A stretch of 64,000 nucleotides of DNA from an uncultured Planctomycetia bacterium (GTDB taxonomy: Bacteria > Omnitrophota > Gorgyraeia > 2-02-FULL-51-18 > JAGOUK01): positions 46,390 through 110,389 of the forward strand of contig CAYSFB010000005.1 in assembly GCA_964430735.1 (NCBI GenBank), in the 5' to 3' direction. Positions 3,001 through 61,669 of the stretch are shown one piece after another. Under the pieces are notes generated by a model. It made no database searches. It was not told the origin of the DNA and saw only the letters and a list, made by a program, of their open reading frames with translations. The translations under genes were made by a program, and so were the position numbers. The first letter of the stretch is position 1, and every line of letters starts with the position of its first letter.

Positions 3001-4493
3001 GTGCCGAAACGAATCCTGTCGCGATCAACCTTTCTGCGGCAACAGGAATGACTCACGGCATTCACCGAGGCAAGATCGGCCCCGGGTCCACTCCGGGCCC
3101 GGTGAAGTACGACGGCCCTATCGGGGCTGTCTTCCAGGCCGCGGACGGATCCTGGAAAATCACCGTCACCGACAATACCGGTTCCGTATTCGTAGGTCCC
3201 ATGACGGACAAAGACAAGCAGATGTCGATTCTCGTTTCCGGAATCGTAAAATCTCAAGCGGACGCGATATCGGTCCGCGGCCTTCTGTCTGACGGTGACC
3301 AGGAGCTTGACCGGCAGGTCAAAGCCAATGGTTTGACCTGGCTTGCGCGGGGATCTTTGTCGAACCACCGTGAATCGCGCGTCACGCTGGACATCACTTC
3401 GGCCAATGTTCCTGACGCAGAACTGGCTGAAAGAGCTCTTCAAGCGCTTCACGGGCTGGACGATGACATGGGTCAGGAATCCCGCACAACTCCCATCAGG
3501 GAAGGGGAATCGTTCTCCGTTGAGCCGTTCCTGGCGCGCGGTACGGGCGTCAAGTCCGTGCGCCGCACATCGTTTTGGAAACCTGCCGGCGGCGGATGGG
3601 AACCAGTGGCCCAGGCGCGCAGGAGTTCCGACACGCGAATGTGGACCGAGCATGTGACCGATGGAGCGCACGCCTGGACCGAAGAACGCACGCTGCGCGC
3701 GATCCGGACCGATGACGGCGTCCTGCGGTACATCGACCAGACAGCATTGGACGTTGAGGTTGTATTTGAAACGTCGTCCGGCGCGCGTCTTGCGGGACAG
3801 GCGGCCGTCGAGACCGCTGAGCGCGGCGCGGAAGACTGGAAAGCGGCGATGTCGCTCTTGATGGTGTTGCGCGAGAACCGAACCGTTTCGCGGCCGATCG
3901 CGATGCCCGCAAGCCTGTTCTACTCGGATGATCGTCTGGATGCTGATTTTATTCGAATGCTCGGAATCTTTAGAACCGCATTGAGCGGGCGGACTCAGGT
4001 TTACGGCAGCGAAGCGGATCTGATGCGGTTGCAATCTGATCTTGCCGCAGCTGCCGGCTCCGGACAGCTTGTCGCCGGGATGATCGATCCCGTGGCACTG
4101 CAGGATGATCTTGCCAAACCGGAACAGATTCGCCGCCATCTGGAGACGAAGGGCCTCGGAGTTGACCCAATCTTCGTGATAGCCGAGAATGATTTAGAAA
4201 AACTGCCCTCAGGAACCGGCTCCGAGCACTGGGTGGTTCTGCCGCAAAAACCGCAGGCCGAAGTTCGCGTGGGAGGAGTTGAAGCGCTGGCCGTCGCCGT
4301 CGCCGCCAACTGGCGGGACGAAATCCTGTCGCTGTTCAGCGGTGGGAGTGGCGAGCTCTACGCGCGCGAGGATCTTAAGACGCTGTTACGGCGACCGACG
4401 CCTTGGGTGCGTTTCCTGAATTTGCCGCAACGGCTGTCTGAACTGATCGGTCAGCTGGTGCAGGGCGCTCGAATGACATCCGCTTCAGCCTAG
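3..4493 (+). CDS. C-terminal portion of a giant multidomain protein. The 5' end lies outside the window: the frame is open from base 3 and the GTG at 27 is only the first start-like codon.
   Basis: The frame is uninterrupted from the window edge to the stop at 4493 and the antisense frames are broken. It contains HEIQH (HExxH) at about 1692-1706 and a P/D/K-rich linker at about 2211-2340. SGARLAG at 3777-3797 is the same pentapeptide that recurs in the downstream giant ORFs. Confidence 0.7.
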   Translation, partial: FRNKWSRWVNDETKGALDGQRERFARALIEDLDAVEDGRQTRLIRVTRAGGLVFIDAAAARKEYPDVYKNLQQIAQKSRIPNYRESDPQSRARLLKSLRRAFEFELVEGEARRNNFRHDFNYSQERNPTPEEFSAYVNTWNDALKVHELHGHEVDRLLGHSMLWRSNYTGDELITITEITAHLISMALGRNPHGVILQTHTYTSRGTSGVGYQNIGVEVAFRLFAALSAADRNALCRASGVAAEVFLDKSKLEKLMLQNPDWTLRIANGFAAVKPAALQAAALKAYRDYVDAIEADAAKHAGKERAGKNGENTKLFGATLDAFALEMHEGKDGLDSKNTGKLLTKSLLRDPGYRQEVEKTAAELEAKFRDILREKQGEPGFNHAVRYLMARLRQFGDPDDPEVFRRFIKIMPNAHRIVKDGWTQSRVVKHFTGELQTLDGMLRAGPGTDRFASKESAAKGLPEDFEGMVDRVNRNKRTAAARIRPFAEASGIPESEYSQELDDNSCVYLSKSGFSKVDFYVEGKLQKRGSTLAYSFDSFRMLVVSTQDNPLTINDGEYEHVLNHEIQHFNIDITNEQIREGIVEILSLLNARGFGKEPQKGYHAVLQHLGSSTDYSYQRYITNLIEALRQSGNWNHEVLSYVQSTGDTSILNIHSLDSALAEVRLRGGSDAQVVLKRRNGGKDDAKPWSEVKAFARQNRKSYEQFLYSVTRRRNGTFEITETGGNIIPDRETSLDEDEDPPPADPAKKDADAKDGSDPPPGGDPAAAKPPKPDPLQTEVLFKMPFMVPGTEDDEDATEQDIAAFALKLGSDVRWDRSWRVGNARLLLLEPAKASELSIALGGAYPAGTEWAVVMDASLPDEQAVALVRFDPYALEGGFPDTGRLRIVSVLHAEQAHDTALPDEALEPSEALRALFSPVVEGGLENYRATREGQIETLLDQTWAVMNIRVAKWILNGLYTAEEINRKFENDAQMTMLALAEKYGWEPPEKIIFPAKNAKVGAETNPVAINLSAATGMTHGIHRGKIGPGSTPGPVKYDGPIGAVFQAADGSWKITVTDNTGSVFVGPMTDKDKQMSILVSGIVKSQADAISVRGLLSDGDQELDRQVKANGLTWLARGSLSNHRESRVTLDITSANVPDAELAERALQALHGLDDDMGQESRTTPIREGESFSVEPFLARGTGVKSVRRTSFWKPAGGGWEPVAQARRSSDTRMWTEHVTDGAHAWTEERTLRAIRTDDGVLRYIDQTALDVEVVFETSSGARLAGQAAVETAERGAEDWKAAMSLLMVLRENRTVSRPIAMPASLFYSDDRLDADFIRMLGIFRTALSGRTQVYGSEADLMRLQSDLAAAAGSGQLVAGMIDPVALQDDLAKPEQIRRHLETKGLGVDPIFVIAENDLEKLPSGTGSEHWVVLPQKPQAEVRVGGVEALAVAVAANWRDEILSLFSGGSGELYAREDLKTLLRRPTPWVRFLNLPQRLSELIGQLVQGARMTSASA

Positions 4494-4515
4494 CGGGAAT
4501 CCATCTGAGGTTATC

Positions 4516-4544
4516 GTTGAACGCTTAAAATGCTGGCATAAACT
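4516..4544 (+). promoter_or_regulatory. Candidate sigma70-type promoter for the TPR lipoprotein operon (-35 TTGAAC, 17-nt spacer, -10 TAAACT).
   Basis: TTGAAC at 4516-4521 and TAAACT at 4539-4544 sit in the 84-nt gap between the giant ORF stop and the next start. Confidence 0.3.
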
Positions 4545-4577
4545 TACTTGCGGCCAGAGAGGCGAGACAAAGTGCGT

Positions 4578-7291: not shown

Positions 7292-7560
7292 AGGCCATGT
7301 AAGTAATTCAAAATATAGATATTGAGGCATTCGACCTATAATTTAGTAGACAAAAAATATAAATATCTCTTCCTTGAATTAAACAGCACGGACCTGTATA
7401 CTTCTCATAGTTACGGGGGTAACTGGGGGGATCCATGTCATCTTTTCAATTTGTCGTTCTATCATTTTTGTCTCGGTGATTTGTTTTTTTCCGATCATAT
7501 TTAAAAAATTTGATTAAGTAAAAGTACAAAGATAAAAAAGCGATTCAAAGAAAGATAAGA
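7292..7560. promoter_or_regulatory. AT-rich intergenic island upstream of the 10.3k-aa gene, a likely promoter/leader region.
   Basis: About 270 nt of strongly A/T-rich sequence sits in otherwise ~64% GC DNA, with poly-A/T tracts and several -10-like hexamers (TATAAT at 7337-7342, TATACT at 7397-7402). Confidence 0.5.
7375..7402 (+). promoter_or_regulatory. Near-consensus sigma70-like promoter (-35 TTGAAT, 16-nt spacer, -10 TATACT) about 160 nt upstream of the giant gene start.
   Basis: TTGAAT at 7375-7380 and TATACT at 7397-7402. Confidence 0.35.
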
Positions 7561-9100
7561 ATGACCCTTCAACGACCTGGATTCAAACTCCTCGTGAAGA
7601 TCGTCGCCTCGGTGACGGTGGTTACCTTTTTCTTTCAGGATGTTGTCATGGCTACCGGCGGCACACCGGTTTGGAAGACGACGCCCGTCGCGCTGTCTGC
7701 GGGTGAGCGCGGGGCCGGCAAGCAGGTCCCCGAGGTCTCGGCCTCGCTGGGGGTGAAGCGCAGCGAGCATCTTGACGGCGAGGCCGACGAACTCATCGTC
7801 AACATCCAGGACGCCCACTCCTCGATCGGCGCGCAGAAGGCCGCATCCAAAATTTTTGCCGAGCTCGTCAGCCAGTACGACCTCGACGTCATCGGCGTCG
7901 AAGGATCCTCGGGCGCGATCGACACGAGCCTCGTTTCCGCCTTCCCGGTCAAAAAAGTCCGCGAATCGGTCGCAGAGTCGCTGCTGCTCAACACCCGTAT
8001 CGGCGGGGCTGAATTTTTCCAAATGATCTCCCAGGACGACGTCGAGCTCGTCGGCGTCGAGGACCCGGAGCTCTATCAGAGCAACATCCGCGTCTACCAG
8101 CGCCTCATCGCCGATGAGCCGCGCATCCGCAAGGCGCTCTCCGCGCTCAAAGAAATCCTCACCGCTCTTGAGCAGTCGATTTATTCCCAGGAGCTGCGCG
8201 ACTTCCGCCGCCAGCGCCTTCTCCACGAGTCGGGCGACCTCAAATTCACCGAGTACTGGCATTTTCTCAAAGCGCTGGTCGTGCGTTCCGGTCTTTTGAC
8301 CTCCGGACGGCCCAACCTCGAGAAGCTGATCCGCACTGCGGAGCTCGAGGATGAGATCGACTTCAAGTCCGCCACCCGTCAGCGCGACCTGCTCGTGAAA
8401 GAGCTCAAAACCAAGCTCTCCGGAGACGATCTTGCCAGCCTCGTCAAAGAAGCGGTCCGGTTCAAGCTTGGCAAAATCACTCCCGGCCGTTTCCACGCCT
8501 CTCTCGTCGAGCGCGCCCGCGACGCCGGCGTCGACCCGGTCGCCTACAAGGACTTCATTCTGTATGCCGAGTACGCGGTTCTCTACGAATCCATCGACTT
8601 TCTCCGCGTCTTTGAAGAAATCGCCGAGCTCGAGACGCGCGTCGAGGGGTCGCTGCTTCGCAAGACCGACGAACGCCGCCTCGCCTCGCTCGGCCGCACC
8701 GTCGACATCCTCGCGAAGCTGCTCGAAGTCAAGCTCACGAGCTCGGACGAAGCCTTTTTTCTGAACAACCGCGCGATGTTCGAGCCGGCGGCCCTGCAAG
8801 CCGCCGTCGAGGAGCTCGCTGACGAGCGCGGCATCGATGCCTCCAGAATCCATTGGAGGCTCCTGGCATCCGAAATCCCCGCCGCCGAAAAGTTCTACCG
8901 CCTCGCCAAAGAGCGCAACGACGCGATGCTGACGAATCTGACGAAGCGCATGCGCGAAAAGGGCAAGACGGTCGCCGCGCTCGTGACCGGCGGTTTTCAC
9001 ACCGAGGGGCTCTCCCGCCTCATGCAGGAACGCCGCGTCTCCCACGTCGTTTACATGCCCAAGTTCGATCCCAAAGACGGCGAGCGTCCCTACATCACCG
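7561..9100 (+). other. Conserved N-terminal module shared by the three complete giant proteins (family unknown, possibly Tiki/TraB/GumN-like).
   Basis: It aligns block by block with the N-termini of the ORFs at 38719 and 47149: IQDAHSSIGAQ / IQDAHTNESGQ / IQDAHTNASGQ; VIGVEGSSG / HVFTEGADND / HVFLEAGSGDD; LVGVEDPELYQ / LIGVEDEELYD / LWGVEDPALYA; and LVTGGFHTEGLSRLMQERRVSHVVYMP / LVTGGYHTPSLKRMLKDKGISYVSIMP / LVAGGYHAPNLKRLLRESGVSYVSILP. Confidence 0.6.
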
Positions 9101-12100
9101 TGATCACGCAGAAGGGCTCCTTCATCGACGCCGAAGTGCGCGCCGAGGCGCAGCTCGAAGCGATGGCGATGGTGCTGGCTTCCGCAGTGAAGGGCGGGCT
9201 CAAGTTCGAAGACGCGCGCCGCATCTGGCTCGACAGCTTCGCCGCGGAACAGAAGGTCAAAGGCATCCAAATTCCCGAATGGAGCGACGCGGACCTCGCA
9301 AAGCTCGTGGACGGGGCGCCGTCTGCCGTCGAGTTCACCATCACGTTCGACAAGAACGGCATCCCGTCGGCGACCGCTTTGAAGATCGCCATCTCCGACT
9401 ACAAACGCCGCGCGGCGCTGGCCCGCCTGAGCAGCGCCGAAGCCCGTCAGGCCGAGACGCAAAAGATGCTCGAGTCGCTCAAGGAGTCCTTGGCGGCGGA
9501 CGACCGCGCGTCGACGAATGAGAACGCCGCGGCCATCGTGATCCGCGCCAAGGAACGCTTCCTCGTGCAAATGGATTTGACGCGCGACGCCGCCGTGCTT
9601 GAGCGGCGCTGGGAGGCCGAGTGGGCGGATGCGTACATGAGCGCCCTGCGTAAAAAGGGAGTCCTGACCGCGGACACGCTTCCTGTGGAAGAAAAGTCCG
9701 CCTTCGACGCCGAAGTTGCCCGCGCCAAAGACGAAATCCGCTCCAAGCTTCAAATCCGCGTCGCCGAAAAGCACCGTCTTGACGGCGACCGGCAGCTCGC
9801 GTCAGCGTCCCGCGGAACGGCCCAAAGCCCTGAAGCCGCGACCGCCGCCGCGGGCAGCTTTGTCGCCCGGGTCGACGCATCCCGCCTCGCCGCCGGAGCG
9901 CGGCTCGCCGTGATGGAACGAGTGGGGAGTGCGGTCAAATTTTTGTTCCCGTTCCAGGCGGGCTCTGCGCCTGCCGACGCCGTCAAGCCCGAACCCGTCA
10001 AACCTGCTGCCGTCGAACCCAAGATCCTGGACTCCAAGCCGCGCCGGGCTCCGAAGCAGGCGCCGAAGCAGGCGCCGGTGAAGAAAAAGGCGGCGGCTGA
10101 ACCGGAGTTGAGCGGGGCGGAGTTGCAGCGTCTGGCCGTTTACGAAGCCCGCTTGGTCGGCAAGGTGCCGGCGCAGACGCTCGAACGGCTTCGGTCGAAG
10201 CCCGTGCTGGTGCGTCAAATCCTGTCCCTGATGGACCTCAAGGCCGGCGTTAACGACGCCCGCGTGGCCGCGCTTCGCCGCAATTTCAAATCACAAGGAT
10301 TCGCCAAATACACCGGCCCTTTAACCCGGTCGCTCACGCTCCGTGCTCCTCCGGCTGCCGAGAAGCCGGGTTTGTTGACCCGCATCACAAAATCCCGCTG
10401 GATTCGGGCGGCTGTGTTCGTAATTTATATGCTTATGCTTCCGGTTACGGCCGGGGCTCAAGGTTACGGAAGTTGGAATTGGTCGAAAGCCAAGCCCCAC
10501 GGCGATTTTCCCAGTCTGTCGAGCCTCAGGGGGCTCGGATCCTTCAATAATGGCGGTAATACGGATATTGTCGTTCCGAACCCGGGTCCCGAGTCTGTCA
10601 GGGTCATGGCCAGTCAGATTGACGCTTTGGAAAACGCCGCCTGGCGGATGAGCCAAGAGACGACGCGCAGTGCGGTGCAGGATGCCGCCTTTGCGGGCAT
10701 GCAGGCCGAAATGGACAGGAGCATGGTGCACACCCGTGTCGCCGATCTTCTCTTTAATTCGGCCCGGTTCCCGATCGCCACGTTCGGCTACGGGGACGTG
10801 GTCCGGCTGACGACGACAGACGACAACGGCGTGATTCTCAAGCTTCGCGGCCGCGATCCGCTGGCGTTTAAAATCGCCGTTCTCAGCCGGGTGGGCAACA
10901 AGGTTACCGGGCGATTCGTGGTCACCGATCCCCAGGACGGCAGGATGCTGATGGCGCCGGATGATATCGTCATTGATCTCTCAGACCGCGTCATGAAGAT
11001 CGAGTCGGTCGGCGGCAAGCCCGTCCGCAATGTTTATCCGAACGCGCCGACTCCGGTCATCAATCAGATGCGGGCCTTGTGGGAAGGCCTGGCCCCCAAG
11101 GTGAGTGAGTTGGCAGGCGATGCCTGGAGTCCGGCGGAAAAAAAGGCCCTCGCGGGAGACCCTTACCGGGATATTTTTGCGGTCAACACGGTTCGCGACA
11201 TCATCGGGGTTTATGAGGGCTTGGATCGTACGATCCGGTCCGCTGTCGAAAAAATGGACAAAGTTGGTATCGGCGGAACGGGCGCCGGAAGCGATGAGTT
11301 TACGGCGCAATTCGTTCAGAGCGTGCTGGAAAACCGCATGGAGCTCGCCGCCGCGACCCATCTGCGGCTTCAGGCTGATCTCGCGCGCGTCCAGCTCCGC
11401 ATCCGTGAGTTGGAACAGATCCAAAAGACCTCCGGTCTCAATCCGGACCAGGCTGCCGAGCTCGAGGCCCTCAAGGGGCCGGGTTATCTGACGCCTGAAG
11501 CGGGGGCGGCGATCCGTCCATTCGATGACAAGTCCGCGCCACTCGTGACACTGGGCTCGCTGACCCTTCAAGAAAAAATCGCAGCCCTCTCACAGATCAA
11601 TCCCGTGATCGGCGACTACGTGGATGCGGGCGGCACTGCCGATCGGTTCGCCGGCGTGACGGACCAGGCCCGCGCAAGAATCATCGCCTCCCATCCGTAC
11701 TTCCAGACGATGCGGGTGCTGCGGGACACGGATGCCTCCGGAAATGACCGTTACCAGCTCTTCACCATGGGGCAAAAAAACTTGGCCGCACTCGTCAAAG
11801 GAATGGAGGGTCTTCTCAAGCAGGAGGCGAACTGGCTCCGCTCCCTGAACCAAATTATTGCCGCTAAAGTCATCGACCCTTCGACGCTCGAAGGTCAGAT
11901 TCGCGCCGCCAGCCAGGATGAGCTGATCCGTCTTCTGCAAGACAAGCGGACCGGTCCCATGGCCATTCTGCTTTTCAGCAGGATGATCTCGCGCGGGGAT
12001 GTGCCGGTTGCGGCGCTCGAAGCGCTTGCGGAGAAGATGCAGAATTCCACCGACGAGCGTTGGAGGCTGTACTTCATGTTTATGGGATTGTCGATGCTGG

Positions 12101-41700: not shown

Positions 41701-44700
41701 AAAGAAAGCAACCCGCAACCCGCAACTCCTGTCCAATATTCACCCGAAACTGGTCCCGTGATCGAAGGTGCCGTCGTCGGAAAAACCGCGTCCGAAGAAG
41801 GCGCCATTGCGCCCCAGGTGGCTCTGCCCAATCAAACCAATGCCGCGCGGTTGGCCACAAACATCAACCGCAGACAGTTTTTAATCGACGCGACCAAAGC
41901 GGCGGCAACCACCGTCGTGGCATCCCAGATCCTGCGGACGACTCCAGTTCAGGCAGAGGAGCCGAGCGAACTAGTACCCGGAAGCACGCTCAATCTCTTT
42001 GACGAATACGGGACCAAGGCCGGTGAGACGTGGGCGAGCAAGTTCGCCTTCACCGGCGGAGCGCTGGACGCATCGCAGACTCTGAAGTTCGTCGTTACGC
42101 CTGAAGACAGCCTCGAAGGATTCATGATCCGACTGACCAAACAGAAAGACGACGAGGATCCCTGGATCCTCACGTTCAAAAAAGTGAACGGGAAGTGGGG
42201 CGTGAGCACCAGCCCCAAACTCTCGGCGCCCAAGGCTGCCGAGCAGTTTGCCGACAAGGTCGCGGTTGATGCCGACGGAAACATTGTCGTCACGGTTCCG
42301 GTTGCGCTGATTCCCGCATCCGCCCGCTCGCCCAAAGAAATCCACATTCACGCCGGCAAGGTCATCAGCACCGGTCCCCAGGGCCGCGGCATTCAGATCA
42401 ACCTGAATAAGACCAACGGTCCCAATCTTCAATCTGCAGCGGTAGAAATATCCGAAAAATCCGGCGCCCGGCTCGCGACGCTCAAGGAGCTCGAAGCGCG
42501 TCCTTTGGACAAGTGGAATGCCGTGAATTTGACCGATTTTGTTCTAAGCGCCGCTTCCGTGAAGCGGGTTCAGGAAGGTGCCGATCTCAGCCGATACGAA
42601 ATCCGAGGCGCAGGCCGTACGTTGTCGGCGGAAGTCATGAACCGGTATCAGTCCGGGACCGTGTTTCAAATCGCCGTTTCCTGGCAGGATGACGCATCGA
42701 CGTCCAAAACTTTGTATGCGAACCCTTCGGATAATTACTCGCTGGACAGCCTCGCGGAGATTCTGATGGGCCGCGTCGAGGCCGAGCAGACCGCCCCGAA
42801 GTCGGCGGAGCAGACGACCCGAGCGATGCGGCTGGACGAACTCGATTCTGAACAGCTCGCGGATATTCTCAGGGAACTCGTTCGTACGGACAAGCTTGCC
42901 GAGTATCCCGTGCAGTCCAAATTCCTGCTCTATTCCGCGGCGCCTGGCACCGGCAAAGGAGCTCTCTGGGAGACCGCGTTTGATCCGGACAAGGGCGGAA
43001 GCTTCAGCGATATCACCGAAAAGGTCGTGTTGTTCCACACCCGGAAGATGCGTGCAGGAGAAGTTGACGGCGTGCATTACCATTTCCGCACCGTCGATCA
43101 GCTGCGCGACCTTGAGCAAAGAGGACTGATTCTCACGACGCTCATCAACGGACAGGTGCAGGGCCTTGCCATCAAGAGCTTTGAAGACGTTCGTCAGGAC
43201 GGAACTCCGGCTCAAGTACGCGGACTCGAAGGCATCTTCAGCGGCGACAAGCTGGCTATCCTTGAAGGCGGCATGGGCTGGTTCGACTTTTTGCGCAGCC
43301 GCCCTGAATACAACGGCGTTCCCGCATTCTTTTTAACACCGCTTCCGGAAAACGTGATTCAAATTCGCGAGAAAAATCTCCAGGTTATCAAACGCACATT
43401 CCCCACGGACCGGGAGCAGGCGCTCGCGCTCGAAATCATGATGCGTCTCTTCAGCCGGGACGGCGAATCAGACCTTTCGAATCCCGCCTACGTCGGTCAG
43501 CTGAACCGGATCAAGGAAGGGGTGACGCAGATCATCAAGGGCGGAGACTATGACGAAAGGTTCGAAAACATATTCGGATTTTCTGACGAAGATAAGGATA
43601 AGAATCTGAAGTCTTTGGTGGAACGGTTTTCGCGCGCCTACTTTTTGCGGGTCTTGAACGAAATACAGAATGATCCGCGCGGAGCCGCTGACGTCGAGGC
43701 TGCAATGGCGAGTGTGCTTGGATCCCGGTTGGCAACCGGTCCAAAGGGGCCGAGCTGGATCCGTCAGTATGCGCCGCATGTCGCGGACAGCCAAATCGTC
43801 GAAGTCACGATGGAGATGGCGTTGAGCGAGCCCATCATGAGCGCGCTTGAGACGCGCCTGCGCCAATCGGGTCTTGAGGAGGAAGCGATCGAGCATGAGC
43901 TGCGCAAGGCCGCCATGTCCACGTCCGTCGGAGGTATCGGTCCGCTGCTGGGTGAACGCGTGCCGGAACTTTCGAACCTCGGAGCAAATGTAACGGCAGT
44001 TTCGCTTCTTTATAATCAGGTCTGGGTTCAGAAACGCCGGCCCGACGGAACACTTTCGTCCGAAAAGGAGCAGGTTCATCCGGAACTTCGTAACGTCATG
44101 GAACCCGCCGGCGAAGTGACGATCGAGATGTACGACGGCACCAAAATCAGCGCGCGTGTGCTCAAGGCCCCCCGCGGAGCCTACCAGCAGGCCGACGTCT
44201 ACTTTATTGACGTGCCGTTCCTCGCTGACACGATCTGGGCGCGTTCGAATGTCGTTTATCCTGGGGCCAAAGACGTCAGCCGCGCGAATGCCGAGCTGGC
44301 GCGCTTCAATCAGAGCTGGATCCTGGGCCGCGGTACGCTCGCTCTCATGAAAATCCTGAAACGCCGTCCGGATCTCGTGATCATGAGCGAGGCGTCCTCG
44401 ATGTTCGCGCATCACCGTGTTTTTAGAGACAGCCATAGCGACGATCCGTTTTTTGACAACACCCGCTATGTTTTTAACGATCACACGCCGCTGGATTATG
44501 CGCATCCCAAATGGAGTTCCCAGGTGCTCCGGCTCCTGCGCGTCGACGAGCGTTTTTGGGGCGAGAATCTCCCGGTGTGGGACGCGGACGGCCGCGTGGA
44601 CGCGACGGCGCTCATGATCAACGCCTCGGACATCGTGTATGGCGTGGCCAAGAAGCACGCGGAGGTGATGCGCGGAATGGTCGGGTTGAGACGTTTGGCC

Positions 44701-47148: not shown

Positions 47149-50100
47149 ATGAGCGTCCTCAGGACCCGAACCCCCATCCGGATTCGCGCGATTGCGGCTT
47201 TGGCTGCGGCGGCCTTCCTGCTGCAGGACGTCGCGTTCGCCATGCCCGAGCTGGCGGCGCGCGCGGGAGTGCCGCACGTGCCCGCTTCGGCGGCGATGAT
47301 CGAAGACCGTTTTGACGCCGGACATTCCGGCGGCAAGACGGTTTTTTTGATCCAGGACGCTCACACCAACGCTTCAGGCCAGCGGCATATCGCCCGCACG
47401 CTCGAAGCGCTTCACAATCAGACCGGATTCACGCACGTTTTTCTCGAGGCGGGGTCGGGGGATGATTCCATCGGCTTTCTGCGTCCGCTGGCCGGATCGG
47501 CAGATCGCCGGAACGTGGCTGAGCCCTACCTTAACAAGGGCCTTTTGCAGGGGGCCGAGTACTTTGAGCTGGTCACCGACCGGCCCGTCAAGCTCTGGGG
47601 CGTCGAAGATCCGGCGTTGTACGCCCAAGCGCTCGCCGCCTATAGGACAGTTGCCCTCGGGCGTTCGGTGCACGAGGCGCGTATCGGCCGCCTGGATACG
47701 GCGGTGGAAGTGCTCAAACATAAGATTTACAATCCCGCGCTGCTCGAACTGGACCGGATCCTTTTGTCCGACGTGCGGGAGTCCAAGCCCTTCACCGAGC
47801 TTCTCGCGGAGCTGGATCCCTTCCTGAAGCGCGCCTCGCTCGGGTGGGGCGAATTTCCTGAGCTTGCGGCGGTGCACCGGGCGCTGGCGATGGAGCGGAA
47901 GATCGACTTTGACCTTGTCCGCCTCGAGGAAGCGGAGGCGATTCACCGTTTGCCGGAAGCCGACCGCGCCGCAATCGAAGCCGTGCGGTCATCGGCCGGA
48001 CGCATCGCCGGATCCAACCTTGCCGTCCAAGCCTCGCACGCGGCGCTTCTCAAGGAAGCGCTCGCCGCCGCGCCCGGCCCGGCCCGTTCCGTCCCCGCCG
48101 AGCTCCGGAAGTATTTTGAGTACATCGAAGCGACGCAGGCCATTCGGACCGAGCGTGCGGTTCGGGAGCAGGAGCGGCTTACGCAGGCGCTCATCAGCCG
48201 GCTGACGCGTACCCGTGAAGAAGCCGGTCTGGTGCGCGCGGCGTCCGCGCTGGAGGCGTTCCGCGGACTCGGGGCGCTCGAGCTCACTCCGGACCGTTAC
48301 AAGTCGGAATCTGCGAATCCTTATTTTGCGGACGTCGCACGGTTCGAGGGATTTTTAAACGGTCAATGGATGCGGCTGGGGACGGGGTATGAAAAAGTCG
48401 TTTTTTTGGATCCCGCCTTTGAAGACTGGATCGCCGAAGCGAAGCGCTTCTATGATCTGACGCTCGCCCGGGACCGGCAAATGATCCGTGAGGCGTTGTT
48501 GCGCATGGACGAAGCCGGCGAACGGAAGGCCGTCCTTGTGGCCGGCGGATACCACGCGCCCAACCTCAAGCGCCTCCTCCGTGAATCGGGCGTATCCTAC
48601 GTCTCCATCCTTCCTCAGATCACGCATCCGACCGACAAGGCGCGTTATGAGCGCCTGCTCCTGGCCCAAACGCCCGGCCGGCCTGCTGGCTCAGCCCGCG
48701 CCATGAGTCTCAAGCCCTCGCGCGAAGCGAATCCCGCTCTGCTGGAGCAAATCGCGCGCGACCTGGCCTCGCGGCCCGGCGCCAGTCCCGAAGCCCTGCG
48801 GGCCGTGTTGTCCGAGCTTTCCGGCGGCGCGCGGCTGGCCGCATCATCGCAAAGCGTCCGGACGGGAGTAGAGGCGTTTGCCGACTCGATCGTCGACAAG
48901 CTTCGGCGCGACCCGTTGTTTGATTTTGCGGACTTTAGCAGCGAGGCGCAGACGCTTTTCGGCAGCCGCACCGACAGGATTCCCGCGCTCGAGATACTCG
49001 CCCAAAGAATCAACCGCACACTGATGGAAGACCGTTCTCTCATGCCGTTCGAAAAAGCCCGGTTGTATCAGTTCCTTGCCGATCTCTCATTAAATGACCG
49101 GGAGCAGTCAGAGTCAGTGTTCGGCACGGACATTTTTTACGGCGCCTACAAGCGCATGATGGGAACGCGCCGCTATCTGATCGAGCGCAACCGGCAGCTC
49201 CTCGCCGCTTTTCGTTCAGTCATGCTCCCTGTTTTGGAAAAAGTGAAGCGTCCGTCCGGTCCCGTCTACTCGGGCAACAAAGTGACGGCGGAGGTTTCTG
49301 CCCGTTTCGACGCGCTGCACCATGGCGTCGGCAAGGATCTTTTTGTCTACGCGTCGGTTCCCGACGAAAAGTCGGTGCTTAACTTCACCGTCGATCCCGA
49401 CGCCGGCCCGGCCTTCAGGATCGTGGTCCGCCCCTCCGAACGGCGCGGGGTATCGGTCGCGAATTTTCGCTATCAGCATCCGGACCAAAAAGACGCCGCG
49501 CCTGATGTGACGCGTCTCGAGGCTGATGACGCAGATGGAATCAGGGAACTCAAGTCCGATCCTCAGTTCAATCACGTGATGGCCGCCCTGAGCGCTGCCG
49601 GCCTGACCTCCCATCGCGCCGGCGAAGAACAGGTTCTCAGCAGCATCAAGTCGATTTACGGCATGAGTCCCTGGGAAGGCATCGAGATCGAGATTCACAG
49701 CCGGCTCCCCGTGTCGAGCGCACTGGGCGGCGGCACAGGCATGACGTCGGCTCTGATCGCCGCGTTGCTCGAGTACACGGGACGCGGGAAAGCGGTCTCC
49801 AAGGCGGAACTTGCGCTTCTGGGTTCGTATGCGGAGATGCTGTTGGCGGTGGATGATCCTTCGAGCCCGATGGGAGGATGGCAGGATGCCTTGGGGGCGC
49901 TGCTAACATACCTCAATTGGATCACGATCGGTTCGGATCGGCCGTTTACCGAACTTCATGAACAAGCGATCTTCGAAGGAGAAGTCCAAATCCGCCGCGA
50001 GCAGCAACTGATGTCCAGCCTTCTTGCCCGCTCCGTGCCGATCCTTCTGCCTTCGGCCGAAGGGACTGGATCCCAGGATGTTTTGGAAGAACTTGTGAGC

Positions 50101-53100
50101 CTCCATTTGCGCGGCTCCCGACGGTCCCGGGAAGCTGCGGCCGCGGGCCGGGTCCGTATGGAACAAGCCTGGGATTTGATCAGCCGATATCGGTCGGGCG
50201 ACCTAACACTGGAATCTGCCACGGACGGACTGATCCGCCTCATGACCGAAGAGGCCGAAGCCTTCGGGTCGCTCGTCCTTGGTGTGAGACATGAAGGGTT
50301 TGACCGGCTTCTTTCTGAGCTGACTTCCGCACGCGACTTGAAGAATCCGGACGGTACCCCTCTTGTTTCCGGAGGCAAGATCGGAGGAGCCGGAAGCCGC
50401 GGTGTTGCGCTCGTGTTTTTGGCGGCGGGAAATGACCGGGAGTTGAGCGTGCGCCGCCGGCGTGTCCTTGATGCGGCGGAACGCGCCGGAATGAGCAGCT
50501 TCCCGCTGCGGGCCGGCGACGGTCTGCGGCTGAAGTCAGCGCCGGTCCGACGGACCCAAGGCGCCAGACTCACATCGGCCGTCTCGCTGCGCGGCCTTGC
50601 TCCGGAAGTGGAGCTGGAGGTGTTGAAGCACCATCGCGACGAACTCAAAAAGGAGCGCTTCGCTCCGGGAACCGGCAACTTCACCCGCGTGTACCTGTTC
50701 TCCGATATTCACGGGTCGATCGGGAAGATGGATGATTTTATTCTCAAGGCCTTGAAGGACGCGTTTCCGGAAGCGTTTGGAAGTATCGCGCGTTTGGATC
50801 CTTCCATATCGCTTCAGGAGCAGCTGGCGGAACCGGTGCGCCAGGTGGGCGGTTGGAATGTCATTCGGGAAAAAGTCGCCTTCTTAAACGGCGGCGATCT
50901 CATGGACCGCCAGGATATCAATAAGGGCGAGTCGGGGCTGGCCGTTTATGAGCGTACGATCCAGCTGCAGGAGCTCGGGCTTCAGGAATTCACGACCGGC
51001 AATCATGATCACCTGGTCATCATGCCCCTCATGGGACTTCATCTGCCGACATACGAGGGTTATCGCTTTTATTTGGACATGACCGAAGCCGGCAAGGCGG
51101 CCCAGCGGGCACTCGAGCACGAGATTTATCGTGACCCCGCCCGGCCTGATTCCAAGCTGAAGCTGAGGCCCGTCGAAGACGTGGTGCGTGAGCGGAATCG
51201 CGGGTTTGCGAGCGACCGCGACCGCACCGAATTCTGGAGCCAAAAATTCTCGGACTATTACACTGAACGGATCGACCCCGCGTCTCCGCTCGTACGGGAA
51301 TGGAAGCAGATCGGTTCAGAGGTGTTGGGCGATCCGGCCTCCGGCAGCGCGCCGCTCATGTCCAAAGACCAGATCAAGGGGTTGAGCGGCCTTCAGAAGG
51401 TTTTTTGGAACAAGTTCACAGGCAAGAACATGGAAGACGTCGACATCTACACCGGCATCCGGACGATCAAGGTCGGCGACCAGGAAGTCTGTTCCACGGG
51501 CCTTATGTCCGCGATGTGGTGGCGCGAGCTCCGGACCAACTTCCAGCAGCAGCTGGACAAGCCGCTGGATGCAAAAGACGCGATCCGCGATCTCTCGATC
51601 CGGGCTTCGTGGGAAAAGGCCATCCGCTACATGGACCGGATCCTGGAGGGTCTCGAAGCCGACCTCCGCAAGCGCCGCAGCGAGGGGCAATGGTGGGTCC
51701 GGGCGATCGAAGCGTTGTATAACCAAAATTATTACACGGCCGAGCAGGCCGCCTGGGACTGGGTCGTCCACCTCGGCTGGGGCCCGGCGTTGTTCGAAGA
51801 AATCAACCGCCTGATCCGCGCGGGAAAAATCCCCGGACCCGAGATCGACCGGTCCAACTTCCTGCTCAATTCCAAAATCCAGGAAATGAGCCGCAGGATG
51901 CAGGAAATGTTCGCGCTGTATTCGCGCAACCGGTATATGACGTTCCTCCACGCGACCCTCCCCATGGACCGGGCGACTGACAGCGCTCCCGGCGATTCCG
52001 CGCCCATCCTTCCGGGCCAGTTCCGGTTCAGGTACGACGGCGTGACCTATGTCGGCGCCGGGCACGAAGCGAGCGGCAGTCCGTCGGTGTGGGAGGGGAT
52101 GGACCGGCTCGAACGGGCGGTCCGCGAAGCCGACCCGGTTCATATGTCCGATGCGGCAACGGCCTTCAACGCGATTTATGACTGGTATTCGGACTTTAAG
52201 ACCCGCGCCAAGCCGCGGGATGTGCTGGAATTGGTTAACGATGACATCGCTTTCACGAACTTTTTCAACCTCAACGGAATTTACGGGTTTTTGGGGACGG
52301 GCCACAACCCGTTGCCGACCGGTTTTGCCAAATATGTGCGCGAAATGCTCCGACGCTTCGCCGGCGTTCTGACTCAGGCGTTCGGTCCGCGCTTCCGGGA
52401 CTACTGGCTCCAACTTGACGCCGGAGTATCCCTCAAGTTCGGCAACCAGGGGCTCATGATCGCGATTCATCCCGCTGACATTGCCGGCGGCCTGCGCATC
52501 TTCGGTTACACCAAGCCGGACGCGAAAGAATTGACCGAGAACCCCGCCATTTATTACGAAAAAACCTACAAGAACTACAAAGAGCAAAAAAAATCAGATG
52601 CCGAAACACCCGAGCCGAACCCCGCCTTTACGACCGAGCCGGTCGGACACGAGGACTTCCTGCTCGGCCACCTCGGCATCGTCGAGGATCGGATCCGCGT
52701 ACTCGAGAGCCGTCTCAGGTCCCAAGTCGAAGCCGACGGCCCCGGCGGCGCCCGTTTGGCAGAGAACCTCCCGGAATACAAGCGGACGATTTCCCGTCAG
52801 CTCACGGGTGCGATGGGCCAATTGTCCAAACTTGCGCAAGAGCTCGAGAACGTCAAAGCCGAGATCGCCCGCATGAGAGGGTACGAGCCGGATCCGGACG
52901 GACCTGAAGCTCCGGAGGAACCCGGGATGAACAGGGCGATCATCGATTACTTCCTGGGCGGCGATCTCGCGTCCCGGACCGACCGGTTGCAGGATTTTGC
53001 GGATCGGATCGAGTATGTGCGTGAACAGATCTCGGCCGCGAGTATGCCGCTTTTGCTGGACCATCCGAGCCGTGAGGACCTGCTCGGTGCTCTTGCCGAC

Positions 53101-56100
53101 CTTTCGAGCGCATGGAAGACGCTGGCGGACCTTCAGAACTCGCTTGCGGACCGGCAGGCTAGTCTCATGCCCGTTCATCATCCGATTAAATACGCCAGTT
53201 CGAACCTCCGCGTTTCGATCCTCGCAATCATCAGGCATTATTCCGAGCTCGAGCCGGCCGTCGAAGACTTTGTTTATTACCGCGATGTCATGCGGCTGAT
53301 CCGGAAGGGGTCCGGGAATGTCGTCCGGTCCATGAACCTCGCCGAGCGCGCGGGGGATTGGCCCTGGAGCCGGTTCGAATCGGACGAGGAGTTTGAAGCG
53401 TTTTGCGAACAATTCGAAATCCGGTGGGTCACCCTCACAGGCTCTCCCCATCCGTTCGATGCTGTGATTCAGCCGGCGCCGTCCGGCAACGGCATGACCG
53501 ACGCGGTCGATGAATTGTTCTCGATGCAGGGTGAATTCGAGATCGCGATGCGCGAAATGCCGGAATTCAAGGATCAGCCGGTTGCTTCGGATATAGAGTC
53601 CGATCTCCGGCAGATGAGAGAGTGGATCGAGCTCAAGGAGGCCGTCCGGCCCCTTCAGCACCAGCTGAACGCGAAGATGGCCGCCTACTACATCGAGAAG
53701 TCGATGGACTTGATCGATTCCAAGGGTGCCGTCCGCGCTGGAATTTTTAATGTGCTGACGTCGGATCCGCGGTTCGCTGCGGGCGATCGGGACTTCATCC
53801 ATGATGAGCTGCTGTTCGCGCCGGACTCGATCGACGGCAGGAACCTGACGGATTCTGATCTGACGCGCCGTGTTTTGTCCCATCCCGCCCTGGCGTCGGT
53901 AGACCCCCTCCGGGCCAAGGTCGTCTGGCACCTGTTCAAGGCGTGGACTGCCTGGGTTGGCGTCCGCGGTCCCCGGGGAGAGCTGGTCGCGCAGGGCTTC
54001 TGGGACGAGATCGTGGCCCTGGACCGTGTGGATACGATCGCTTCAGTTCCGTGGCTGGCGGTTTACGAAGAACGGATCGCTTGGGCCATCCGGGAGGTGT
54101 CCGGGAACCCCGCCCTGTTTTTGGGGCCTTTGACGGATTCGGAGTACCCATCCGTTGAGGGGCGGGCGGCCGCTGCGATGGATTTGGCGGATCTTCTGAC
54201 GGCGGAGCCGACGTCCGAATCCGAGGGCGAGGGCATGCTCGTGCGCGCGAAGCGGGCGGTCCGGATGCTCCACAGCGCTTTTGGCGCCCGCCTGGCGGCG
54301 GACCGTGTGCGGCCCGGGCAAAGTGAACAGCGTCTGAATCCCGCTCCCAGAGAGTTCCGGATGGCACGCAAGCTTCTCAAGCTCGTCCAAAATTCCGATT
54401 TGGAGGGCATGGATAAATATGTCAAAACCCAGGCGCTCCTGGCGGCGCTTTATGGCGGAGAGGCGATCATCTGGCACAGGAACAAGCAAACAGGGAAATG
54501 GCAGCGCAATATTTTCCGTTTTTCCAACGGACTGTTGTACACGCTTCCGTTTTCGGCCATGGAGACGGTCCGGTCCATGCGTGCCGGTGAAGATGTCCGG
54601 GGCAGCCTCCTGGAGCTTTTAGCGCCCCGCGACCGCGACCGGAACATCTACAACCACTGGAAAGGTTTGGCGGAGCCTGTTCCTGCGGAGGCAGGAGGAT
54701 GGACCGGCAAAGCGACAGAGCAGAATTTGACCGAGTTGATCCTCGAGATTTCGGAGGAGGCGGCAAAATACGGGATCCGTCCGGAGCATTTTGCGACATT
54801 GGCGGTTGATCCGGACTTTCAGAATCCGTTTTTGCACACCTTTATCGGGATTCCCGCTGAATCGCATGTGTTCGAGCAGGGCGCGAGCCGCCTTGAGATG
54901 GCTGCAACAGTCATGCGCCTGTCGCCCGAAGATCGAAGCAAGTTCGTGCGTCTCGAGAACCATTTTGAGCCCGAAATCCTGATTGAGGTGGCTGACGTTC
55001 CGAAGAATGTGACGGTGATCCGCGACCGTCATCAGGTGGGCGATCCCAAGCCCGGCAAAGGCGGCATCCGGTTTATTTCGGCGGGACAGCTCAGTCGGGA
55101 CCGGGACTTCATGGAGCGCTTCGAGAAGCTCAAAGCCTCCGGGTTTAATCTGGATGAACTGCGGTTTTTCCTGCGCAAATGGGTCCGGGAAGAAGTGCGC
55201 GCGCTCGCGATCGGCATGTCGGTCAAAAATGCCGTTGCGGATCTGCCGTTTTCCGGCGCCAAGGGCACGGTTCTGTTTGCGGATGTCGAGCAGTCGCCCA
55301 AGAAGGGTCCCGTGATCCAGGACCTCTTCGCCGGCATGAACGCCTCGGAAGACGGCGGAGTGAGCCCTGCTCAGCGCTACAAGGCCAGCGTGTTGCGCCG
55401 ATTTGTAGACGCCATGTATGACGCGGGGGTTTTGGGTCCTGATGACGATGTGCCGGCTCCCGACCTGGGATCGACTTCCGCCGACATGGATATCATGACC
55501 GATGCGCTTCTGCGCAGATACCTGGGCTTGGGTATCCGCCAGCCTTATGCAGAGACCGTCCATGTTTTGGCCGGGTTGCGTTCCTCCGGCCACTATCCCG
55601 CCGAGCTGCTCGACCGCATCGAAGAAATGGTCCGGAGTCACCGCTCGAATATGGACGCGCTGATGGTTCGTCCGGTTCTGCTCGAAATTGTTGCCGGATA
55701 CCTTAAAGAGGCGATGGCGGCAGGAGTCAAAATCAAGCCGGGAACTCCATTCGGGAACCTGGCGCGCCTGCCGGCGACTTTTACCGCCAAGTCCGAAGCC
55801 AACCTGGGTTCCGGTTATCGCAGCCGTGCCACGGGCGAGGGTGTTCAGGAGATCGCCAAGACGTTTTATATCGAAGATCATCCGGAGAAGTCCGATTCCG
55901 CATCCCCGATGGACGGTGTGACCGTCAAGATCGAAGGAGCCGGAGCAGTCGGGCTTGAGGCCGCGATCGCGGCGGTCCGGGATGGCGCCAAAGTCATCTC
56001 CATGAAGGAAGCCACCGGCACGGCCTTCAAGTCCCGGGGTTTTACCATAGAAGATTTGGAAAAAATGCGGCGAGTACTCCAGCGCAATCAGGACGGCTCT

Positions 56101-59100
56101 GCGGTCCATCCCGAAGGTTTTGCCCTGCTCGACGCCAAGACGGCAGCCGCATCGGAGTTTACGATCGACGGCGCATTCGTCCTTGCGGGGAGCGACGCGC
56201 AGGACGCGTTTTTGACCGAGCCGGCCGTTTTCTTCTACGCCTGCGCGATGGAAAATTCCATCAACGGAACCAATGTCCATGCCCTGAACGCCGACTATAT
56301 TGTCGAGGGGGCGAATGGCGCCATTACGAATGAGGCTTATTGGCACTTGATTGAGCAGGGGCGCACGGTATTGCCGGATTCCCTGGCGAATGCCGGCGGC
56401 GTGACCGGCTCCACGTGGGAGTGGCAGGCCAATCGTGACTTGGTGAGGCATACTGCCGCCAGCGAACGGAAGATGACGCTCGGCCAACTTACTGCCGCGG
56501 CGCTTCGGCTTCGGAAGATCCAAAACCGCTGGATCAACTCGGCCGGAGATCCGCTGGATCTGCGCACGGCGACCATGATCGTGCTGTTGGAGCGCGGATT
56601 CAAAGGAGGTCCGGCCGCAGCCCGTCTCGCGTCCCAGTCCATCCGGACATTCGAACGCGAGGTCGCGTTGGTTAGGGACGGGGTCAAGGCGAATTTGGTG
56701 ATGCAGTTCGCGGTTCCCGACCGCAAAGACCTCGTTCGGCGCGCATCGTTGTCCATCGAGGTCGTACAGGATCCTGGCAGCACCCCGGCGCCGGCGATGC
56801 TTCAGCTGCCGATAGCGGAGCGGCCGGCGATTCTTTTGAGCCGCATCGAAGACTATATTCACGAGTTGTCGCAGTCCCGGGAGCTCTTGGATGATATCGG
56901 CGGCCTGCAGCGTGAAGTGGCCCTCAAGTTCAGCCGGATCGTCACGGCGGATACGATGCGGGATGAGATGCAATTGCTGAATTCCGCCGAGGCAAAAGCG
57001 GCCCGGGCAACGGATGATGAGGATATCAGGTCGGTGATCCGGATCCTTCAAAGCGCCAAGCGCCGGTTCAACGACCCTGAGGACGAAAAATTCCACGGCA
57101 ATTATACGGGGTACATCAACGAAGTCCGCAGGGCCCTGGATCTTCTGGAGCCGATGGGATTCAATCCGCACGGGCCCTTCGGGTCGGATCTGGGAACAGC
57201 CGACGACCCGCTTGAGACGCTCGGCCGCGCCGTTGTGCAGTTTTTGCAAATTGCCGAAGGCGGGGATGCATCCGATGGAGCGCGCCTGGCGATTTGGGAT
57301 CGTTGGTTCGGCGGCGAACGCAATTCCGGCAACCGTCCTTCCAGTCAGAGCGTGATCGAACACAATCTGCAGGCGATCGAGCGTCTCGTCCAGACTGCGG
57401 TCATACCCTCGTTTGACCGGCAGATGAAGCGGCTTTATTGGCGCGGCGAGACTCATCTGATCCCTCTTTCCGCCCCGGCCTTTGAAGGGATCGTCGACGG
57501 TCCGGAAGCCTCCTTCCAGATCCACGCGGTTCATGTCGATGCGGACGGGCGGATTTTGCCTTCCGGTGAAGTCGAAGGATCCGTGCGCACCATCCTCGAT
57601 TTGACCGATCACATGCGTTTACGGGCGCGGTCCAAGAGTCCAAACTTCCTCGCGACGATCCATCAATTCAACCGGTCCGGCTCCAAACCCCTCTACGAGC
57701 GCCTGCGGGTGATGCGTCAGGATTTCCTGCAATCCCGGCGGGGCCGGGAGGTCCGTGATTTGGAAATGACGCGGGGTTCCGGGTGGCTCTTGGGCGAACG
57801 CGCGGCGGTGATCCTCGAAAAGCTGCAGGATGGAGCCGTCCGTATCGGAGTTTATACGGACTCCCGGATGCCCGTTCGGCCGGCCGGATCTGTCGACGAA
57901 GACTCGGATGCGCCGGCCGTCGAATGGGATGCGCACATCCCATTTAACCAAGTCCGCAAAACGGATTTGCGCTCGTACGAATTTGTATGGAAGCGGGCTA
58001 ACGGTTCGGTTCAGTCGGATCCCGAGGCGATCTACCTGAACGACGGGGATGTGCGGTTATGGATCAAGTCCGTCGATCCCGGTCTTGGCGGAATCACTCT
58101 TTCCTATCAGGCGCCGGTGCGATTACGCCAGCGCCGCATTTCTCAGACCGACATCCCGTCCAAGTCCGGCTCGCGGCTGGCCAAGGCCGGGCAATACCGT
58201 GCCCGATATCTGTTTGAGCCGGCGGCTGTCAAACAAGTCCAATCGCCGGTCACAGAACAGAGTCTTTCCCCGACCCGTCCATCCGGCCGATATGAGCGCC
58301 ATCGGTTGCGATCAGCACAGATTCCGAGCGCCCTTCGGACGGTGATCGAAAACGGAGATTTGGAGCGCTTTGGCTCCGGGGTGTTCGCCGCGCAGCCGGC
58401 GGCGTTTGAATCGGATACCGACTTTGCGATGTTGTTGGACGAAAAGGATCCGGTGATCATCCGGGCGTCCTATGATTCTTCGGCGGACATCCTGAGTCTA
58501 TGGGCCTTGACCTCCGATGAAAACCCGATCCTGCTGCACCAAATCCGGAATCCGCGCAGGGCTTTTGTGGAGGATGCCCGCCGATCTGCCGCCGTCAGTC
58601 TGTCGATGTCGGATGTTCAAATGACCATCGAGGCGTTGCATGCGAGCCTTGACGCCCTGATGCCCGTCAGCCGGTCCGAAGATGCGGCCGCGCCCGCCAA
58701 GGTTCGCAACCGCATTCTAGAATACACGCTCGATTCGTGGTTCGACCCCGAGCATCCGGAAGACTTCGATGTCGTGGTGCCGCTGCTGGTGCAGGAAGCG
58801 TTGAGCGCCCGCCGGGCGCTCGAGAATCAGGTCGCCTTCACTCTCAAGGGCCGGGAAGATCTGGCAGTCCGTGTCCTGGCCGCGGCGTCCGCCGCAGGGG
58901 CCGGGGATCTCTTTTATTCCTCCGAGGAGGATCTCAAGCGCCGTCTGCCCGGATTCGATTCGGATGATGTCGTCACGGTCCGGGTCCAAAGTTCGGATGA
59001 TCCCAGGCCGGCCGCTCCTGTAAACGGGGAAGCGGCGGATGTGCGCACCATTGCGGTCCAGCCCTTGCGTCGGTCCCAAGACAACCGGATCGGTGTGCCG

Positions 59101-61665: not shown

Positions 61666-61669
61666 CGCC

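Follow-up and report, generated by a model that had tools for sequence, protein, structure and literature searches.

A lineage-specific pentapeptide at the module junctions of giant Omnitrophota proteins, a possible polyprotein processing site

The giant proteins of the Omnitrophota raise the question of whether they operate as single chains or are cut into smaller products, a question which is explicitly put in recent preprints reporting genes of more than 100,000 codons in this phylum. A 64,000-nucleotide stretch of contig CAYSFB010000005.1 (assembly GCA_964430735.1; hereafter the window, meaning this whole stretch) bears directly on this question, as it carries four very long open reading frames (ORFs A, B, C and D) on the + strand whose products are punctuated by a recurring pentapeptide, [GA][AS]RLA, of which GARLA is the commonest form. 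The analysis set out below leads us to propose that a site-specific endopeptidase recognises this pentapeptide and cuts there, so that the giant ORFs would encode bacterial polyproteins, a reading to which we assign a probability of roughly 0.55. The window has a G+C content of 56-62% along its entire length, and its sequence is also contained in a contig of 85.8 kb from the assembly of run SRR14271373.

In the four giant ORFs (18,678 residues) the motif is observed 21 times as compared to 0.46 times expected from composition, and a variant copy, GARLT, is present at 50560. Shuffled versions of the proteins contained on average 0.49 (300 mono-residue shuffles) or 0.51 (300 dipeptide-preserving shuffles) matches with a maximum of 3 in either set, and the enrichment therefore survives correction for both composition and dipeptide bias. 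Exact GARLA was found 12 times against 0.08 expected, such an excess being seen for GARLA alone among 5-mers, and the remaining five reading frames contain just 0 to 2 matches each. A preliminary description of this DNA had reported about 20 copies distributed over all four giant ORFs, in large excess over chance; each position which it gave carries the motif within a few bases, three further sites can be added (ASRLA at 9877, AARLA at 36145 and AARLA at 40405), and the excess is stronger than had been claimed. The codons employed at the sites comprise all six for Arg (CGN and AGR), four for Leu (CTN and TTG) and all of those for Ala, and as all synonymous codons are used the constraint is on the peptide and not on a DNA repeat. 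Selection thus acts at the peptide level on five residues, and a DNA-level repeat or recombination site was ruled out by the same variation. Local alignment of the flanks (±60 amino acids (aa), upstream and downstream, for every pair of sites) placed 208 of 209 pairs at background score, the single pair above background being the sites ahead of the two Nudix copies, thereby excluding duplication as the cause of the recurrence. All three conditions under which the preliminary description would have been refuted (composition, dipeptide bias and duplication) are thus rejected.

The same motif is found throughout a large protein family which is defined by the N-terminal domain of the giants. Although querying with the N-terminal module of ORF D in a word-indexed search for homologues returned zero matches, an exhaustive profile search of 1.84 billion representative proteins retrieved 9,203 matches to the N-domain at E<=1e-3, of which 5,703 reached E<=1e-30. 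In addition, degenerate patterns derived from this domain identified 78 loci in GTDB species genomes, nearly all of which bear the label Omnitrophota, with a few assigned to Planctomycetia or Elusimicrobia bins. In the 150 best profile matches (P0001-P0150; 417,509 aa), on which the family-wide motif statistics are based, the match is always N-terminal, and the longest proteins have about 6,900 aa. G[AS]R[LM][AST] occurs 615 times in these relatives as compared to 9.0 expected, a roughly 68-fold excess, and 80 of the 150 contain three or more motifs. A logo of 593 internal sites from the relatives restricts the information to the five residues, with 2.5 to 4 bits per motif position, a weak preference for S or A at position -1 and essentially nothing elsewhere. 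Near relatives of 46-48% G+C have a motif density like that of the window (18 sites per 3,821 aa in locus L017), and ORFs of the same loci other than the giants contain it about 15 times less often (0.10 per 1000 aa, as compared to 1.48 in giants).

Family members share a layout in which a signal-like N-terminus and the N-domain of ~500 aa are followed by cargo modules and a conserved C-domain of ~350 aa. In the window, homology among B, C and D covers their first ~500 residues and ends just short of the first motif, and the final ~350 residues likewise form a module with the motif ahead of it. Across the family the conserved C-terminal domain takes up the final ~300-360 aa, and it gave zero Pfam matches even at E<=10. 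One hundred of the 150 family members terminate in [AS][AV]-COOH behind a conserved tail of ~24 residues with the consensus L-[QR]-x-A-R-[ML]-A-x-[RK]-[AM]-V-x-x-[AS]-A (window copies at 4464-4490, 47092-47133 and 59332-59358). Of 100 complete members, 35 have a word resembling the motif, A-R-[LM]-A, at 9 to 13 residues from the C-terminal end, and the notion that this 'ARMA' tail represents a universal extra site was downgraded on account of that proportion.

The position of the motif relative to protein modules was established by splitting the proteins at the motif and scanning the pieces against Pfam. Near-complete enzyme domains were recovered from segments B6 (NUDIX), B7 (starch-synthase GT5 and GT1), B8 (guanylate kinase), C6 (GT5 and phosphorylase), D2 (GHMP kinase) and D4 (Glu/Leu/Phe/Val dehydrogenase), and most remaining segments were without a Pfam match. 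Pfam domains lie whole between motifs, with zero domains split by a site. Two further words were noticed by eye in parts of the giants where Pfam reported no match: metallophosphoesterase-like words (FSDIHGS … GNHD) in segment D2b (window 50575-52758, D aa 1143-1870) and an HExxH word (NHEIQHF) in ORF A.

An all-against-all BLAST of the 150 proteins, with the N-domain left out, provided a test of module boundaries across the family. Alignments started within 40 residues past a motif in 20% of cases and ended within 40 residues past a motif centre in 20%, the null being 7% for each, and only 34 of 367 alignments crossed a motif. The first motif is always located behind the N-domain and the last at a median of 358 aa before the C-terminus, while the distance between motifs is that of an ordinary protein (median 280 aa, interquartile range 147-542). 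In the alignments that run through a motif, identity is 53% in the motif columns as compared to 21% in the ±20-aa flanks and 37% over the alignments as a whole, so that the motif is a conservation island in the least conserved part of the chain. This is illustrated by ORF D and its orthologue in locus L015, which at 29% identity have both kept the motifs flanking the GHMP kinase (SGGARLA/TAGSRLL and TQGARLT/DQGSRLA for D/L015), the linkers being otherwise unalignable. A short conserved word is thus found between independently folding units and is absent inside them, as in a polyprotein, and the association with module junctions that had been proposed for the window is supported and extends across the whole protein family.

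Cleavage at the motif would generate new N-termini, and two of those predicted correspond to natural ones. The initiating methionine (Met1) of Escherichia coli isopentenyl-diphosphate isomerase (Idi) aligns with the final Ala of the GARLA that precedes the first Nudix module, and the N-terminus of E. coli YfcD aligns onto the motif ahead of the second. In ORF C, AARLA is followed at once by TNINRRQFLIDATKAAATTVVASQILRTTPVQA (C aa 1046-1077; next residues EE), in which an RRxFL twin-arginine core, a moderately hydrophobic h-region and an AxA-type end can be recognized by eye. This twin-arginine (Tat)-like signal is not N-terminal, being situated 1,045 residues into the chain, and would become so only if the chain were cut at the preceding AARLA. 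A second case is present in locus L016, where AARMS is joined to TRRDFLRTAGLGLAAAGLVP. Across 104,000 aa of motif-bearing ORFs two of four internal Tat-like signals stand directly behind a motif, as compared to the 5% of sequence lying within 25 aa past a motif, although these counts are small. The copies just upstream of both Nudix modules and of the Tat-like signal had already been pointed out, and their contexts (FGARLASEERVDLLDENG, NGARLAQVEMVDVLDEAG and NAARLATNINRRQFL) are correct. A signal-peptidase A-x-A reading of the motif was ruled out by eye, since position -3 does not always hold a small residue. Nor does the motif behave as a sortase or exosortase sorting signal, which would have a C-terminal transmembrane helix and a basic tail behind it, as most sites are internal and followed by hundreds of residues without a common feature; the C-terminal tails comprise 4 to 13 residues and end in [AS]A.

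Short spacers bounded by two motifs occur in the window, where they are 6 aa and 68 aa long. In L017 (L017:9911-21373) a unit of ~70 aa is present three times (aa 815-885, 1250-1320 and 2471-2541), each copy between two motifs; it reads GARLA-VNEEK.KDTLTQK.PS.DEG … GIDTF-GARL[ATS] and resembles a repeated spacer or releasable peptide.

The search for a co-encoded protease, which the preliminary description had proposed, returned no Pfam protease family in any segment, the only matches being the few enzyme domains listed above, and none of the neighbouring genes (a TPR protein, a Dpy19-like membrane glycosyltransferase and an ATP-binding cassette (ABC) sugar transporter) encodes a protease. What the search did yield is the N-domain itself, for which we infer membership of a superfamily that includes site-specific endopeptidases. 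The N-domain had zero significant matches in Pfam and NCBIfam, and its profile zero meaningful matches among PDB sequences. Under relaxed Pfam settings, 49 N-domains gave matches to Cofac_haem_bdg (ChaN) for nine members (best E 0.0019), to Erythro_esteras for one (6e-4) and to TraB_PrgY_gumN for one (0.019), all of which are families of the TIKI superfamily. An AlphaFold2 (AF2) model built on three sequences was of low quality and gave no information; the model built on 22 sequences has a pLDDT of 84 and a pTM of 0.76 and displays the TIKI fold, i.e. an alpha/beta architecture with a parallel beta-sheet core and flanking helices, overlapping with TIKI structures named in PMC6254334 (HopBA1 5T09, ChaN 2G5G and PMT 2EBF). 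The catalytic set of this superfamily was defined as 2His/2Glu in the same paper, with a His-to-Glu spacing of 28 residues in Bcr135 (H85/E113) and RRSP (H3902/E3930). Such a set comprises E-x-H on the first strand, a Glu some 28 residues further on and a second His behind a late strand. In the alignment of 49 N-domains, H72, E100 and H469 do not vary and D70 is conserved in at least 90%; the spacing from H72 to E100 is likewise 28, and D70-x-H72 corresponds to E-x-H, so that the catalytic set is present with Asp in the place of the first Glu. Besides this Asp and the sub-threshold Pfam matches, the N-domain differs from known TIKI members (Tiki, RRSP, TraB/PrgY, erythromycin esterases, ChaN, HopBA1 and PMT C1/C2) by ~300 residues, helical in structure, that are inserted between core strands three and four, and by its position at the head of a giant, which is new for the superfamily. 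It is the leading candidate for the protease, being the only conserved enzyme-like unit common to all members and belonging to a superfamily that includes proven sequence-specific endopeptidases (Tiki and RRSP).

A second word was identified in a sister clade that lacks GARLA. Here each ~3,800 aa contain 4 to 10 copies of R-[SA]-E-[LVIM]-R, where about 0.05 would be expected (loci L045, L050, L055, L056, L058, L066 and L067, and by counts also L059 and L065). GARLA and R[SA]E[LVIM]R show zero co-occurrence, and each word is restricted to its own cluster of N-domain sequences. An xSRM[SA] variant is found in loci L003 and L010, and other clades contain no obvious junction word. Differences fixed between the GARLA and RSExR clades fall at positions 98-111, 438, 468 and 472 of the N-domain, next to E100, R441 and H469, and include Asp105 to Lys; clade-specific residues by the putative active site would fit a co-evolution of specificity.

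Taken together, these observations point to a layout in which the signal-like helix and TIKI-fold domain are followed by variable, protein-sized cargo modules and the C-domain, with [GA]-[AS]-R-[LM]-[AST] serving as peptide-level punctuation in variable linkers between the units. A site-specific endopeptidase would cut the translated giant at the pentapeptide into separate proteins, one of which, once released, would expose its twin-arginine export signal. The scissile bond would most likely be [LM]↓[AST], as products cut there would begin where standalone homologues begin, and with small, stabilising residues. The candidate protease would be the N-terminal TIKI-fold domain of each giant, acting in cis or in trans. 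More tentatively, as a possibility to which we give less than even odds, the giants may be cellular polyproteins that replace operons, in which a helix-tethered TIKI endopeptidase cuts a lineage-specific word (GAR[LM]A or RSE[LVIM]R), the word and the surroundings of the active site co-evolving, and frees tens of enzymes, spacers and Tat-competent proteins.

Several points weigh against processing at the motif by the N-domain. The cutting, the cut positions and the cutting enzyme are all deduced from sequence and models. Within segment B7 a Nudix and a glycogen-synthase domain are fused without a motif between them, two modules of ~3,000 aa have no internal site and the same is true of some multi-domain units, while many family members possess neither the GARLA nor the RSExR word, including some in motif-bearing clades. 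The N-termini of the giants resemble Sec signal peptides by eye (positive n-region, hydrophobic core and A-x-A), and if the whole chain were exported it would be difficult to account for cytoplasmic-type enzymes and for a Tat signal. The N-domain of ORF B (window 7561-9300) is just 23% identical to that of D and clusters with that of a motif-less locus, L021; as ORF B nevertheless carries GARLA-type sites, the word follows the organism and not the N-domain in cis, which suggests action in trans or a different protease. As regards the domain itself, the Pfam match of D1 scores 12.9 bits against a cut-off of 27.7 bits, and the remaining weak E-values suggest that those matches are likewise sub-threshold. 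The fold is no proof of protease activity as the TIKI superfamily also holds esterases and non-enzymes, and the clustering of clade-specific residues is partly a matter of ascertainment, since only conserved columns can show fixed differences.

In the rival that survives best the motif would stay uncut and serve for docking or as a hinge in the linkers, its binding partner being for example the N- or C-domain, a chaperone, or a factor for export or assembly, and each giant would be one scaffolded multi-enzyme chain. Enrichment, junction location and unconserved flanks would suit a binding motif equally well, and a cut at the word near the C-terminus, in those 35 of 100 complete members that have it, would shed only a short tail. 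Nonetheless, a docking or hinge role leaves unexplained the well-formed Tat signals directly behind the motif, the coincidence with the N-termini of standalone Nudix proteins and the two-motif spacers of 6 to 70 aa, and we regard it as rather improbable. The preliminary description had weighed a site-specific protease site, and hence polyproteins, against just such a docking or linker element; the former is the best-supported explanation after the tests described here, with cleavage as our inference, and the latter stands as its alternative.

It is less probable again, and in our estimation quite unlikely, that the motif acts in translation, as a peptide that pauses or arrests the ribosome, as a StopGo-like skip or by marking internal initiation, and would thereby allow modules to be made or folded apart from one another on a single mRNA. 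A nucleotide- or decoding-level effect is hinted at by codon usage in relatives of 46-48% G+C (loci L004, L005, L012, L017, L018, L020 and L029), in which the motif is skewed to GGC-GCG-CGG-TTG-GCG as compared to background (CGG 57% versus 17%, TTG 49% versus 24% and GGC 48% versus 28%). Even in these loci, however, all synonymous codons are still present, and in the window the skew is weak or absent. The non-start Leu codons CTC and CTT are common at the site, and known arrest and skipping peptides need a longer conserved context than the five residues seen here. A translated Shine-Dalgarno sequence with a start codon (GGAG…ATG/TTG) was ruled out on similar grounds, as CTC and CTT are common and GGA is depleted, leaving no Shine-Dalgarno-like GGAG at the motif.

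The modules equal whole proteins and the [LM]-[AST] pair is similar to a Met-Ala or Met-Ser start, as might be expected were the motif a functionless fossil of gene fusion, that is, the remnant of a shared terminal or intergenic sequence. A relic would not, however, hold 53% identity against flanks at 21%, persist at orthologous junctions of proteins 29% identical, be swapped as a set for another word in a sister clade or use all synonymous codons, and this origin is most improbable. Chance, amino-acid composition or duplicated domains can practically be dismissed, for although the proteins are rich in Ala, Arg and Leu and one pair of sites precedes duplicated Nudix domains, none of 600 shuffles yielded more than 3 sites where the proteins have 21, the flanks of 208 of 209 pairs score at background and the relatives show a ~68-fold excess.

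Viruses, MARTX toxins and gingipains already exemplify the processing of polyproteins, and, if confirmed, the giants would represent a new setting for it. MARTX toxins are autoprocessing giant multi-effector toxins of Vibrio, and no segment of A to D matched their C80 cysteine protease or RTX or glycine-rich repeats at E 0.01. The candidate protease of the giants is instead N-terminal and of TIKI type, the site is a defined pentapeptide and not merely a Leu in a loop, the cargo consists of metabolic-type enzymes, and in the absence of a eukaryotic host the inositol hexakisphosphate trigger of MARTX would not be available. Viral polyproteins (picornavirus 3C, potyvirus NIa and alphavirus nsP2) likewise encode many proteins per ORF, have junction words with unconserved flanks, include the protease in the same chain (a candidate in the case of the giants) and employ a word that differs by lineage along with the protease. 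The giants differ in belonging to a cellular organism, in chains of up to 10,307 aa, in the unrelated fold of the presumptive protease and in that their cleavage is a prediction. Gingipains (RgpA/Kgp) of Porphyromonas gingivalis are secreted polyproteins that cut themselves at Arg or Lys between catalytic and adhesin domains; they have far fewer modules than the giants, a specificity for a single residue and a protease of family C25.

Also close to the proteins of the window are the Omnitrophota giants described by West-Roberts et al. (2023 preprint) and the 'multi-enzyme metabolic clusters' of a 2026 preprint, which are from the same phylum as the window giants and similarly contain starch-synthase GT5, GT1, NUDIX and kinase domains along a very long chain. 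The proteins of the window share with these clusters their Omnitrophota origin and the presence of many enzyme families along one chain, although only ORF B exceeds the 10,000-aa cut-off of the 2026 study. West-Roberts et al. raised cleavage as an open question, proposed C39 or S8 peptidase domains as its possible agents and noted that a lack of information on cleavage points blocked module-wise structure prediction. Term searches of the two preprint texts revealed no description of a junction motif or of a TIKI-fold N-domain, and 'polyprotein' appears in neither; 'motif' is used once in the 2023 text, and the 2026 text is without the words cleavage, motif, linker and processing. A literature search for the motif strings returned nothing relevant, the matches being surnames and acronyms.

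Table 1. Giant ORFs of the window with their motif sites and terminal modules. Positions are those of the window; aa numbers refer to the ORF named.
Feature	Position	Strand	Remark
ORF A	3-4493	+	5' end cut off; 1,496 aa visible
ORF B	7561-38484	+	10,307 aa
ORF C	38719-47136	+	2,805 aa
ORF D	47149-59361	+	4,070 aa
GARLA, ORF A	3780..3794	+	junction preceding C-terminal module
Double site ASRLA-A-GARLA, ORF B	9877..9909	+	end of N-terminal module
GARLA, ORF B aa 3623	18427..18441	+	
GARLA, ORF B aa 6898	28252..28266	+	behind Pro/Gln/Ala-rich linker
GARLA, ORF B aa 8090	31828..31842	+	last residue aligns with E. coli Idi Met1
GARLA, ORF B aa 8797	33949..33963	+	E. coli YfcD N-terminus aligns here
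AARLA, ORF B aa 9529	36145..36159	+	boundary of glycogen-synthase-like and guanylate-kinase modules
GARLA, ORF B aa 9964	37450..37464	+	precedes conserved C-domain
AARLA, ORF C aa 563	40405..40419	+	immediately behind N-domain
AARLA, ORF C aa 974	41638..41652	+	opens 68-aa spacer
AARLA, ORF C aa 1042	41842..41856	+	immediately ahead of Tat-like signal
Internal twin-arginine-type signal TNINRRQFLIDATKAAATTVVASQILRTTPVQA, ORF C	41857..41952	+	read from sequence
GARLA, ORF C aa 1249	42463..42477	+	
GSRLA, ORF C aa 1668	43720..43734	+	ahead of GT5/phosphorylase-like module
GSRLA, ORF C aa 2431	46009..46023	+	ahead of C-domain
GARLA, ORF D aa 560	48826..48840	+	immediately behind N-domain; aligned to GSRLL of orthologue L015
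GARLT, ORF D aa 1138	50560..50574	+	end of GHMP-kinase module; aligned to GSRLA of L015
GARLA, ORF D aa 1867	52747..52761	+	
GARLA, ORF D aa 2379	54283..54297	+	ahead of glutamate-dehydrogenase-like module
AARLA, ORF D aa 3157	56617..56631	+	behind glutamate-dehydrogenase-like module
GARLA, ORF D aa 3377	57277..57291	+	
GSRLA, ORF D aa 3674	58168..58182	+	ahead of C-domain
N-terminal module, ORF D	47149..48825	+	signal-peptide-like start and TIKI-fold domain
N-domain residue codons D70-x-H72; E100; H469, ORF D	47356-47364; 47446-47448; 48553-48555	+	
N-terminal module, ORF C	38719..40404	+	same family, 33% identity to that of ORF D
N-terminal module, ORF B	7561..9876	+	divergent domain copy and ~200-aa extension
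C-terminal module, ORF D	58183..59358	+	family-wide conserved C-domain; tail end [AS]A
C-terminal module counterparts, ORFs C; B; A	46024-47133; 37465-38481; 3795-4490	+	

The surroundings of the giant ORFs (Table 1) are occupied by genes of other kinds. Between ORFs A and B (4548-7288) are encoded the TPR protein, which has a hydrophobic N-terminus, and a 644-aa membrane protein which matches the Dpy19 family (E 1e-8) and is the Dpy19-like membrane glycosyltransferase referred to above. Directly 3' of ORF D (59426-62512) lies an ABC uptake system of the sugar type consisting of a solute-binding protein and two permeases. Antisense ORFs of 757-997 aa run over the giant genes on the - strand (e.g. 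7501-9774, 43468-46008 and 54619-57612), and are probably shadow ORFs of G+C-rich coding sequence as opposed to genes.

The junction word, which recurs in a family whose representative sequences number more than 9,000, provides concrete predicted cut sites, while each giant also has a candidate protease of its own; the word allows giants to be divided in silico into natural units for the prediction of structure and function. It also makes feasible a renewed search of existing proteomes for the predicted termini and a simple assay in which the candidate protease is combined with a linker. If the processing proposed here is confirmed, no larger case of it would be known from a cellular organism, and the TIKI superfamily would gain a new role.

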